A program made the translations under genes and the position numbers. This document shows, one piece after another, positions 61 to 25,541 of a stretch of DNA of 30,585 bases. Source of the stretch: Candidatus Hodarchaeota archaeon (lineage in GTDB: Archaea > Asgardarchaeota > Lokiarchaeia > Sigyniarchaeales > SOKP01). How positions within the stretch are numbered: the first letter of the stretch is position 1; each line of letters starts with the position of its first letter. The stretch lies in assembly GCA_048886685.1 (NCBI GenBank), contig JBHLKM010000028.1, forward strand, positions 1 through 30,585, written 5' to 3'. The notes beneath the pieces were generated by a model, which was not told where the DNA came from, did not search any database, and saw only the letters and a program-made list of their open reading frames with translations.

Positions 61-227
61 TTTTCGTGAAACGGTTACAGATCTAAAAGCTAACCTTAAA
101 GTGTCTATTTATTCAAAATTAACAGTTTAGTTTTTTATAAATTGATCTTAAGATCATTAAAATCTTGGGGACAATGATTGTTAGATTAGTTTTAACAAAG
201 ATACGTGAAATAACCGTTTCACGAAAT
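61..227 (-). repeat. Dispersed ~155-165 bp intergenic element, copy E1
   Basis: Ends are a perfect inverted repeat: TTCGTGAAACGGTTA (63-77) and TAACCGTTTCACGAA (211-225). 61-216 aligns without gaps to the reverse complement of 22227-22382 (115/156 identical by manual count). Confidence 0.85.
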
Positions 228-246
228 TAAGTGGTTTTCATATTAG

Positions 247-258
247 AAAAAAAAAAAA
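247..258 (-). terminator. Possible archaeal oligo(T) terminator
   Basis: Run of 12 A on the + strand (T12 on the minus strand), ~45 bp downstream of the stop of the minus-strand gene at 304. Confidence 0.3.
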
Positions 259-303
259 TTTGATTTGATTATAGAAATTATATCTATTTTTCAATTTTGG
301 TAT

Positions 304-22662: not shown

Positions 22663-22940
22663 GATTTTTAATAATCAGAGTAATATCTAAATCTAATAAG
22701 GATTCTATTCCTATAAGTTCTTAAATTATTTTATGATATTTTATCTATTATTAATTTCGGTATCATTCTTCTGAAATTTTATAAACAACCTTCAGAGAGT
22801 GTTGGTATAAGTTTTTCTAAATAATTAATCCTGAATTCGAGGAATTTTTGATATTTTTCAAAGCCTTTCCCTCTAAATTTCTTCCCTGTGTCTGTGATCT
22901 TAAACCTCCTCAACTAGTATTAGATTAATTTCCACCTTTC

Positions 22941-25187
22941 TTAAAATAGATAAAATAACTTTTCATTGAAAACAGAAAGTATATCTTTATTTAACTCATC
23001 TAAACCTTGATTAATTTCTTTTCGGAATTTTTGAATATAAGCGCGGTTATCTTCAAGCTTCTTCAGAGTTTCTTTAACGTATGCAAAGGCTAAATTGCTC
23101 ATTTCGGTTTCTTCGTCGTCCATAGGATTATATTTAAGCATTTCTTGTTTCATGAGAATTTCCTCTTTAAAATATATGATTAATTGGTCATAAGGCATTT
23201 CCAGTAATAAATTAAAAAGGCTTTCAAGGTATTCTTCTCGGGTTTTTTCTTTTTTTAGGGTCCTCACTCTATAAAATTCGATGTCATTTTCAATAATTTT
23301 TCTGAATTTAACAATATAATCTGGATATTCTCTTAAATTAACAAGGAGTTGTTCCTTATACTCTTTTTGTATTTTCAAGCGTTCAATCAAAAAAGGGGGA
23401 ATACGTTTATTGTCCTTAAATCTTTCAATCCTTCTTCGATATGAAGAAACAAGTCCAGTTAAATACACCCTCAATTGCTTTTCATTCATATTTAGTAGAC
23501 TGTTTAAATTAGCTTCGTATTTTTTGACACTTTCTTCTTTTCTCCGTATGTGTAATACATCGTAGAGGTCATCCCCAGCAGTTTTTTCCCTATCTTCTTG
23601 AGGTTTTTTAAATAGGACAGATGAATCAGGTTTTAGTCTAATTAGTTTTTCTCTTATTTTTACCCATTGTGGATAATATTCAACAGCTTTTTCAAAACAT
23701 TCAATTGCCTTTTCTAATTGGTTTGAATTTTCATATATTAAACCAAGGTCAAACCACGAATAACTGTGCTTGGGATTACATTCTAACGATTTTTCGAGAT
23801 ATGTGATAGCTTTATCATATAATCCCATTTTCATATAAGTTTGACCTAAACTATGTAAATGATGTTCATTTTTTGGCCTAAATTTTATTGCCTCTTTGTA
23901 ATATTTAACTGCTTCTTCATACTCCTCCATTCTTAAATAATTATATCCTACAGAATTCAAGATATTATCATCTTTGGGGTCCTTTTCCAATACTTTTTTT
24001 AACACCTGAAGTCCTTTCTTATAATATTCTAAAGCTTTATCTTTCTTTCCTACTTCATAATATGCATCAGCAAGCCAATGGTAGTTGGGTCCGAAATTTG
24101 GATGAATTTTGATTGCTTCTTCTCCAATTGAGACCATCTCTTCCCATCTAGCTAAATAAGATAAGCTTTCTAATACCATATACCAGGTCATATCTAATTG
24201 AGTATTAAACTTTAAAATTTGTTGGAAAATTCTAACACTTTTTTCAAAATCTCTTTCTTGATAAGCCTTTGAACCAAAAGACATTAATCTCATTATTTGA
24301 AATCCCTCAAGATTCTTTGGTAATTTAGAAAGACTTTTTAAAAAATATTGTTCAGAGATTCCTTTGGCTTGCTTAAAGGATTCAGATTCTTTCTTTAATT
24401 CAAAATTTTTTTTTCTAATCCAATATCGATGAAAACCGGTCAGTATTAAGAGAATAAGGGAAGCGATCATAATTGAAATGGTTAATTCATTTAATATTAG
24501 GAAGATCCCTAACAGAATACTCATAGGAAGAAATGCTAAACCATAAACAGCCACTATCAGATCAATAGCTTGCATATGAACTTGGTTTTTCATTCTATTT
24601 TTTCTTATGTCTTTATAAAAAGCTCCAGTTCCAACTTTGTCTTCTCCTCTTAAATGCCTTTCAAATTTGATTAACTCAATAACTTTATCAAATCCTTTCT
24701 CATACTTATCACCAAGGATATTGCACAATTGAGTTTTTTCTTTTTCAGCATTAATTTTATTCGATTCAATCTGTTTTAAAAATTCAGTTGGAGCTATTTT
24801 AATTCCTTCCTCCATAATTGGTTGGATTTTCGATAAAAATTCTCGCATTCTTGTTTTATAAGTTCTTCTACTCTCAAAATTTAGTTCCCGGGTTATTTTT
24901 AACTTATAACCTGGTCTTGATAACTTAATTGTTTTCTTTGTGATTTTTTTTACCATACTCCAACTTACATACTTTACGTTTGGTAGCATTTTCCTTTGAT
25001 ATTCTCCATAATAGAATCCCTTTTTTGTAAAGAGTACATGAGTATCCCACATCTTATTAATTTTAAAAGGATCACTAATACTTTCCTTAAAAGATACTTT
25101 ATAAAAAGCACTATAAATAACGTCCTCTCCCTCGGGAATAAAGTTCTGGAGATTTGAATAATATAAAGGAATGTGAATTTCTGACAT
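22941..25187 (-). CDS. Membrane-anchored TPR protein (N-terminal PH-like beta domain, two TM helices, TPR array)
   Basis: Hydrophobic pair 'LIVAVYGLAFLPMSILLGIFLIL' and 'ISIMIASLILLILTGF', followed by about 6 TPRs (YKEAIKFRPKN, LEKSLECNPKHSYSWFDLG). Confidence 0.75.
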   Translation of the reverse strand: MSEIHIPLYYSNLQNFIPEGEDVIYSAFYKVSFKESISDPFKINKMWDTHVLFTKKGFYYGEYQRKMLPNVKYVSWSMVKKITKKTIKLSRPGYKLKITRELNFESRRTYKTRMREFLSKIQPIMEEGIKIAPTEFLKQIESNKINAEKEKTQLCNILGDKYEKGFDKVIELIKFERHLRGEDKVGTGAFYKDIRKNRMKNQVHMQAIDLIVAVYGLAFLPMSILLGIFLILNELTISIMIASLILLILTGFHRYWIRKKNFELKKESESFKQAKGISEQYFLKSLSKLPKNLEGFQIMRLMSFGSKAYQERDFEKSVRIFQQILKFNTQLDMTWYMVLESLSYLARWEEMVSIGEEAIKIHPNFGPNYHWLADAYYEVGKKDKALEYYKKGLQVLKKVLEKDPKDDNILNSVGYNYLRMEEYEEAVKYYKEAIKFRPKNEHHLHSLGQTYMKMGLYDKAITYLEKSLECNPKHSYSWFDLGLIYENSNQLEKAIECFEKAVEYYPQWVKIREKLIRLKPDSSVLFKKPQEDREKTAGDDLYDVLHIRRKEESVKKYEANLNSLLNMNEKQLRVYLTGLVSSYRRRIERFKDNKRIPPFLIERLKIQKEYKEQLLVNLREYPDYIVKFRKIIENDIEFYRVRTLKKEKTREEYLESLFNLLLEMPYDQLIIYFKEEILMKQEMLKYNPMDDEETEMSNLAFAYVKETLKKLEDNRAYIQKFRKEINQGLDELNKDILSVFNEKLFYLF

Positions 25188-25492
25188 TTTATATTTAAAG
25201 GATTTTCTAGTTTTCTATAATTGTTTTATTGATTTCAATTTAACCAAATTTTTTTAATTATTTAATTTACATTTAAGTAAAATTTAATCTTTCGAATATT
25301 GTATAAATTTACACATAAATATTTTTATCTATTTTTGCCTTGGTTTTTCGGATTTCTCTTGACGTATTTGGAGGATCTTATCCTTAAGCATAGATAAATC
25401 CAATTCATTAAAATTTTATAATTCTATTTTTTTAAACAGAATTTGTAGAAAATTTTATGTTTAAGATGTTCTAACCGTTTAATGAACTTATT

Positions 25493-25541
25493 AATCATAT
25501 ATTTGATATGAAAATTTAAAGAATTTTAACCGGTTCACGAA
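25493..25541 (+). repeat. ~49-bp direct repeat copy 2, preceded by a further core variant at 25472 (TAACCGTTTAATGAA)
   Basis: AATCATATATTTGATATGAAAATTTAAAGAATTTTAACCGGTTCACGAA. Confidence 0.85.

Follow-up and report, generated by a model that had tools for sequence, protein, structure and literature searches.

An accessory-gene island of an Asgard archaeon is probably divided into exchangeable modules by short recombination sites

The window considered here is the whole of a 30,585-nucleotide contig (JBHLKM010000028.1) of Candidatus Hodarchaeota archaeon (Asgardarchaeota, Lokiarchaeia, Sigyniarchaeales; assembly GCA_048886685.1), in which a ~155-bp element, hereafter E, occurs in three copies accompanied by solitary sites that resemble its ends. 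We consider it probable (at roughly 0.6) that these repeats are site-specific recombination sites, which split an island of accessory and conflict genes into exchangeable modules. A preliminary description of this DNA had likened E to the cassette boundaries of pdif modules or integrons, and the comparison is supported as a statement of how the sites work rather than of membership in either system: homology breakpoints fall at the sites, modules appear in new contexts and no target-site duplication accompanies the element.

Each E consists of two 15-bp sites with a common arm (TTTCACGAA), joined by a linker of 122-124 bp; within the element the 9-bp arm is repeated in direct orientation and the 6-bp core in inverted orientation (CGGTTA first, TAACCG last). 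We use M5 for CGGTTA plus arm, M3 for TAACCG plus arm, and P for a ~33-bp block that leads into some of the sites. In its complete form the site places the asymmetric core CGGTTA between two inverted 9-bp arms (TTCGTGAAA / TTTCACGAA), and the window holds a single example (202-225), referred to below as the hub; every other site keeps just the arm on the side away from it. Most of what had been described beforehand could be confirmed: the three copies lie where they had been placed (63-216 on the minus strand, 14796-14947 and 22227-22380 on the plus strand; nhmmer E-values 1e-33 to 1e-45), their cores are spaced 139, 137 and 139 bp start to start, the copy alignments have conserved ends and a variable interior, the dyad at the hub reads TACGTGAAA-TAACCG-TTTCACGAA, and solo sites are present at 21013, 25472 (worn) and 25527. 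The close pair was misassigned, being E1/E3 (75% over 159 bp) and not E1/E2 (~74%); E2 is a worn copy with 5 mismatches across its two end sites. The features of the window, in order along the contig, are:

63..77 (-), M3 site of E1 (TAACCG core plus TTTCACGAA arm); exact 15-mer and first one-armed site of the left arm
78..201 (-), E1 linker, 124 bp; belongs to a linker subfamily ~80% identical in at least 6 genomes
202..225 (no strand), complete palindromic site (hub), TACGTGAAA-TAACCG-TTTCACGAA; M5 of E1 plus the opposite arm, where the polarity flips
226..14795 (+), first gene module in the right arm, between the hub and M5 of E2
14796..14810 (+), M5 site of E2, worn (AAGTTATTTCACAAA), immediately 3' of a stop codon
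14811..14932 (+), E2 linker
14933..14947 (+), M3 site of E2, worn (TAACCATTTCACGAT)
20980..21012 (+), P block (AATCATATATTTGATATGAAAATTTAAAGAAT), conserved lead-in to M3, with a dyad TCATAT-N5-ATATGA and a TATA-like TTTAAA
21013..21027 (+), solo M3 site, exact 15-mer
22227..22241 (+), M5 site of E3 (CGGTTATTTCACGAA), exact
22242..22365 (+), E3 linker
22366..22380 (+), M3 site of E3 (TAACCGTTTCGCGAA)
25472..25486 (+), worn M3-like site (TAACCGTTTAATGAA)
25493..25526 (+), second P block
25527..25541 (+), solo M3 site (TAACCGGTTCACGAA)

With up to 3 mismatches the 15-mer TAACCGTTTCACGAA is matched 9 times in the window, against 0.5 expected (0 of 100 shuffles reach 9), and the 9-bp arm alone occurs at chance frequency in the genome. 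Only 5 exact copies of the 15-mer (11 with at most 1 mismatch) were recovered genome-wide, nearly all from contigs C28 (the window), C39, C41 and C23, which probably belong to one island; searched bare in genome and viral contig collections, it returned mostly chance single matches. A sequence-only model of E found the element in 14 of the 40 genomes that make up our genus comparison set (labelled G001, G010, G051 and so on), with 1-5 copies each, mostly on short contigs, and a pattern of its exact ends (lengths of 145-161 bp allowed) recovered it from 72 metagenome contigs. Although the pattern would have accepted this wider range, 65 of the 75 metagenome elements were 152-154 bp long. The 93 distinct copies fall into several linker subfamilies, mutually unrelated and common to several genomes. 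Homogenisation of linkers within a genome, as in chromosomal integrons, was considered and rejected (identity 0.65 within and 0.63 between genomes).

The evidence for exchange comes from the places at which related loci part. Among the genus loci, 27 of 258 homology-block ends lay within 20 bp of a site, versus 4.6 expected (maximum 11 in 200 randomisations), and for blocks of at least 93% identity on the metagenome contigs the count was 7 of 20 versus 0.5 (maximum 3 in 500). A module with a Na/Ca exchanger is 92% identical between G001 and G010, from M3 on one side through M5 on the other; the linkers beyond it are unrelated yet equal in length, and identity falls sharply one base past the M5 arm. 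A module with a TumE-type toxin-antitoxin pair is inverted in G051 relative to G010, and the junction, situated at the core, forms a complete palindrome. Two further contigs, 99.4% identical over 2.5 kb, part 2 nt past CGGTTA, where one continues into the second arm of the palindrome and the other into unrelated DNA. The left end of the window itself provides a comparable instance: bases 1-77 are identical to C39 9835-9759, the identity starting at the first base of the TAACCG core, where the assembly graph branches, so that a module of the DUF2283/DUF4258 toxin-antitoxin type is joined to two different left neighbours.

The sites were also weighed as the ends of a non-autonomous transposable element (a miniature inverted-repeat transposable element, MITE, or one resembling repetitive extragenic palindromic sequences) that spreads by transposition, an alternative raised in the preliminary description. 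Such an origin would suit E as a discrete, scattered unit of ~154 bp whose ends are conserved, and E1 does have perfect inverted ends of 15 bp, but those of all other copies measure only 6 bp. Flank matches around 80 copies equalled the shuffled null, giving no sign of target-site duplication, which together with the short inverted ends argues that E is not a MITE. No Y1/IS200 transposase was found in the whole genome, nor was any serine recombinase; E is low in copy number (1-5 per genome), confined to arrays and strictly co-oriented, and its interiors are unrelated between subfamilies although the length is fixed. We regard this explanation as largely refuted and very improbable.

The arrays themselves have a polar layout. 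In the relatives, E copies stand in co-oriented rows, 0.5-6 kb apart, and among the 72 metagenome contigs the sites lie all on one strand in 60 and on both strands in 12. The switch of strand coincides exactly with a complete palindrome in 11 of these 12, always with the minus orientation on the left and the plus orientation on the right, the arms pointing away. The window conforms to this arrangement, having one minus-strand site left of its palindrome and all 7 sites on the right in plus orientation, over 25 kb; G051 and G016 share the layout, which brings the flips at a complete palindrome to 14 cases. The two kinds of site alternate in a strict fashion: 102 M5-to-M3 intervals correspond to the linker (133-140 bp), the 63 M3-to-M5 intervals all contain genes, forming modules no shorter than 490 bp, and intervals between like sites form a minority (34). 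Where a linker adjoins the hub it does so on the M5 side only (7 of 15 hubs); the window agrees, with the linker on the left of its hub and the genes on the right.

We infer that the mobile unit would be a circle carrying genes plus one E. Recombination of the M3 of such a circle with the palindrome as read on one strand would yield palindrome, genes, M5-linker-M3 and the older modules, whilst recombination of its M5 with the palindrome as read on the other strand would yield palindrome-linker-M3, genes, M5 and the older modules. Each insertion would thereby regenerate the palindrome and displace the older modules outward; a pair of like sites would recombine to excise modules, a pair of unlike sites to invert them. 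With insertion at the hub assumed, four features of the data follow: arms that point outward, cores that alternate in polarity, an array with two arms, and a linker on one side of the hub only. As a speculative addition, the phased linker of fixed length may bring two one-armed sites together to act as one. In the linkers, AA/TT dinucleotides recur with a period of 10.5-10.75 bp, their periodic signal having about double the power seen in AT-matched genomic controls (0 of 2000 resamplings reach the value); the rhythm is moderate rather than strong, and points to curved or protein-wrapped DNA.

Two further explanations concern the element as a folded molecule. If E were an integron attC, the arrays would be clusters of attC sites lacking integron-integrases (CALINs) run by the integrase IntI, a proposal in keeping with co-oriented arrays and a cargo rich in toxin-antitoxin pairs, and one with a precedent, since integrons are reported to be enriched in Asgard archaea and CALINs to occur in some Asgard metagenome-assembled genomes (MAGs) (PMC9668308). 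Single-stranded DNA folds of E1-E3, on both strands, gave z between -1.45 and +1.66, however, and RNA-parameter folds of 14 copies had z of about 0, with only a closing stem of 6-7 bp recurring. Read on either strand, E has CGGTTA at its 5' end and TAACCG at its 3' end, the reverse of R'' (RYYYAAC) 5' and R' (GTTRRRY) 3'; its 152-154 bp exceed the usual attC range, and no integron integrase was found in the genome or in ~730 kb of array DNA. The second explanation, a structured non-coding RNA or a 3' terminator or processing element, had been put forward beforehand and draws on the position of the window copies, each of which follows a gene in the same orientation. This placement, which the preliminary description gave as a rule, stands for the three window copies and does not extend to the relatives, in which the flanking genes face either way; nor is the interior conserved between subfamilies, and an Rfam search of E produced no match. 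As neither kind of fold is better than shuffled sequence, E appears to be neither a structured RNA nor an attC-type hairpin: the attC reading is highly unlikely, and we attach equally little credence to the RNA.

The arms of the hub belong to a wider family. Palindromes of the form TCGTGAAA-N6-TTTCACGA number 4-11 per genome in all 40 genus genomes, as compared with about 0 for a reversed control; their cores differ within a genome and recur between genomes. The present genome has 7, all intergenic and two of them between convergent gene ends, and no regulator gene adjoins any of the 7. The six outside the window are near-perfect instances of (T/A)TCGTGAAA-N6-TTTCACGA(A), each with a different core, located at:

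C1, position 218635
C2, position 42164
C4, position 159467
C10, position 147369
C16, position 50419
C20, position 5912

One of these six lies ~25 bp after a tRNA gene and three are beside genes for Ras-family GTPases. One-armed relatives in this genome are limited to the CGGTTA class. Palindromes of the CGATGA class are usually solitary; across six genomes the sequence immediately flanking them varies, yet a gene at a distance of 1-2 kb is conserved. G013 has a one-armed site of the P type 3.3 kb from its CGATGA palindrome, with the matching core and pointing outward. The variable flanks and the outward site suggest that other palindromes, too, are hubs.

The same family is also the best argument for a different view, namely that palindrome and half-sites are operators of a dimeric transcription factor, that E and P are promoter or operator modules of its regulon, and that the mosaicism stems from ordinary recombination in a variable island. 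Cores conserved at seemingly the same loci across the genus would fit an operator, as would the intergenic position of all 7 palindromes in this genome, the TATA-like boxes ~11 bp upstream of M3 sites and the second dyad in the P block. A regulon does not sit well with palindromes that lie between convergent genes and have no regulator gene beside them, nor with M3 sites of which roughly half lack a downstream gene in the same orientation; it would not predict the mirrored polarity, the strict alternation of cores or the switch within 2 nt between contigs that are 99.4% identical. We judge this explanation unlikely, albeit the most serious competitor of recombination sites; for the solitary palindromes it may hold.

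As for the enzyme, a six-frame scan of the genome detected one tyrosine recombinase (a single PF00589 match, C2:183323-184243), which is not adjacent to the sites. It scored 229.6 bits against a cut-off of 220 for the XerA equivalog, and 94.6 against 265 for the integron integrase. No XerA-like gene was encountered in the ~730 kb of array DNA, and proteins from 35 array loci clustered into shuffled cargo families only, with no candidate for a dedicated recombinase and no other protein family consistently linked to the arrays. Being the sole tyrosine recombinase of a genome whose arrays have no such linked family, XerA is the only candidate found, and the host XerA is probably the enzyme that acts at the sites. 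Enzymes of the Xer type normally need two arms.

Several observations weigh against recombination sites as the explanation. Most sites carry one conserved arm, which departs from this requirement, and the role that we assign to the linker is speculative. No linker is attached to eight of the 15 hubs, in some cases owing to the end of the contig, and the window did not yield the armless junction that an inversion should leave as its reciprocal product. Genomes devoid of E carry 4-11 palindromes with the same arms and other cores as well, which a transcription-factor regulon could explain equally, and the position of M3, ~11 bp past TATA-like boxes, is where archaeal repressors bind. Exchange, moreover, is read from assembled sequences, and many module boundaries in the same islands are without any site. 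The last point would favour sites that have no enzyme of their own, serving as short conserved anchors where islands exchange DNA, homologously or through microhomology, and undergo gene conversion; breakpoints at 15-bp conserved stretches and linker families common to several genomes agree with it. Anchoring leaves the conservation of the 15-mer itself unexplained, along with the fixed length of 152-154 bp, the co-orientation, the palindrome at the hub and the arm-6 bp-arm geometry, and we find it improbable.

The P block may serve as a binding site for an accessory protein or as a promoter directed outward. Many genus genomes contain it at 85-98% identity, and all its copies, those outside the window included (C39 4861-4894; C41 1062-1095 and 9882-9925, both on the minus strand), lead into a site. 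By matching coordinates, P also precedes TCATCG-core sites in G002, G013, G016 and G017. Other short non-coding stretches of the window (2296-2402 and 14940-15055) are common to C23 (26788-26852 at 97%, 10851-10896 and 9927-10042 at 91% each), and the sequence TTTGTGAAAGATATGA appears at both 14986 and 22193; such stretches may represent additional conserved intergenic signals in the island.

The cargo of the arrays outside the window comprises toxin-antitoxin pairs (PIN, DUF2283/DUF4258, TumE and ribbon-helix-helix), MFS and Na/Ca transporters, a leucine-rich-repeat protein and an O-methyltransferase, and is typical of cassette arrays. The modules of the window encode a Ras-family GTPase, an SPFH protein, HEAT/TPR proteins, a MoxR-vWA pair, two NYN RNases and a gelsolin-repeat protein; within the first module (226-14795) are the genes of a 620-aa protein, the Ras-family GTPase, the SPFH protein, a HEAT/TPR protein and three large paralogous proteins. 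Two of the genes in array modules are eukaryote-signature genes, encoding a 175-aa Ras-family GTPase (2411-2938, minus strand) and an 80-aa protein with a single gelsolin repeat (22420-22662, minus strand), the latter having homologues of ~73% DNA identity in most genus genomes. The regions 15434-20534 and 25652-28617 hold a pair of MoxR (bpMoxR) AAA+ and vWA genes and two separate genes for NYN (Zc3h12a-like) RNases, each of which overlaps a large unannotated neighbour. The MoxR-vWA and NYN loci look like conflict systems based on nucleoside triphosphatases (NTPases), carried as module cargo, for which PADLOC has no model. The three adjacent large genes (7110-8996; 9357-12554, in its C-terminal third; 12621-14795) share a C-terminal region at 68-76% DNA identity and matched nothing in Pfam, NCBIfam or PADLOC; they resemble a family amplified locally inside the first module.

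The assembly from which the window derives amounts to 4.42 Mb at 31% G+C in 47 contigs, the ends of which overlap by 77 bases. The presence of a XerA_Arch equivalog is in line with a position of the genome among the Loki-type Asgard archaea (Promethearchaeia). The left end of the window (1-77) overlaps an internal stretch of C39 (9759-9835) by exactly the assembler's 77-mer, which indicates that the island is either duplicated or heterogeneous at that site in the sampled population. An interpretation of the AT-rich window in terms of Bacteroidota or extracytoplasmic-function (ECF) sigma factor promoters was dropped once the genome proved to be of Asgard origin.

Among known systems, the dif modules of Acinetobacter (pdif) depend on XerC/XerD and are bounded by sites of arm-6 bp-arm geometry and opposite polarity. 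The arrays described here resemble them in that gene modules (63 here) are flanked by sites of opposite polarity and recur in different contexts, and in that no dedicated integrase is encoded in the array, a host Xer-type enzyme being the presumed catalyst. They differ in that only hubs are two-armed, the far side of the core elsewhere not being conserved as an inverted arm; in that the arrays are polar and mirror-symmetric about the hub, with a double site and its phased linker of 122-124 bp separating neighbouring modules; and in that the host is an archaeon with a single XerA and several hubs, of different cores, per genome. Shufflons (Rci/sfx) act on the C-terminal exons of a single gene, which they rearrange by means of a recombinase that they encode themselves. 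Many short sites permit the inversion of segments in both systems, and an inverted module with its junction at the core was seen here; unlike in shufflons, whole unrelated gene modules are exchanged between genomes. With integrons the arrays would share a self-regenerating insertion point, older cassettes situated further out, co-orientation and a cargo of toxin-antitoxin and accessory genes, but IntI and a folded attC are lacking, the array has two arms, the genes face either way and the sites are unrelated to R''/R' in sequence and polarity. In the resolution of chromosome dimers by archaeal XerA, dif occurs once per chromosome and has 11-bp arms (Cortez et al. 2010, PMC2958812). Our palindromes likewise have inverted arms around a 6-bp spacer, and the XerA equivalog is encoded away from them; in contrast to dif there are 7 in this genome and 4-11 in each of the 40 relatives, plus dozens of one-armed sites.

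More tentatively, and at somewhat less than even odds, these elements may represent a gene-capture platform of Loki-type Asgard archaea. The platform would comprise several hubs with common arms and different cores, which could for that reason not recombine with each other, and two-armed arrays, either arm of which cassettes with a double one-armed site and a curved linker of fixed length would enter; it would be served by the housekeeping XerA instead of a dedicated integrase, and here it would carry NTPase-based conflict systems together with genes of eukaryote-like character (Ras GTPase, gelsolin). Searching the literature for this motif, or for modules run by XerA in Asgard archaea, returned nothing relevant, and neither the work on archaeal integrons (PMC9668308) nor that on archaeal XerA/dif (PMC2958812) describes a hub-centred layout.

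If the sites do recombine, the system would work like integrons and dif modules but be built unlike them, from one-armed sites around a hub, with arrays of two arms and a phased linker; it would probably employ only the chromosome-resolving recombinase. It would explain why such islands assemble poorly in MAGs, offer a simple sequence signature by which mobile cargo could be found in uncultured archaea and provide a compact recombination system for in vitro work. It would also show a route by which defence genes and eukaryote-signature genes pass between Asgard lineages.

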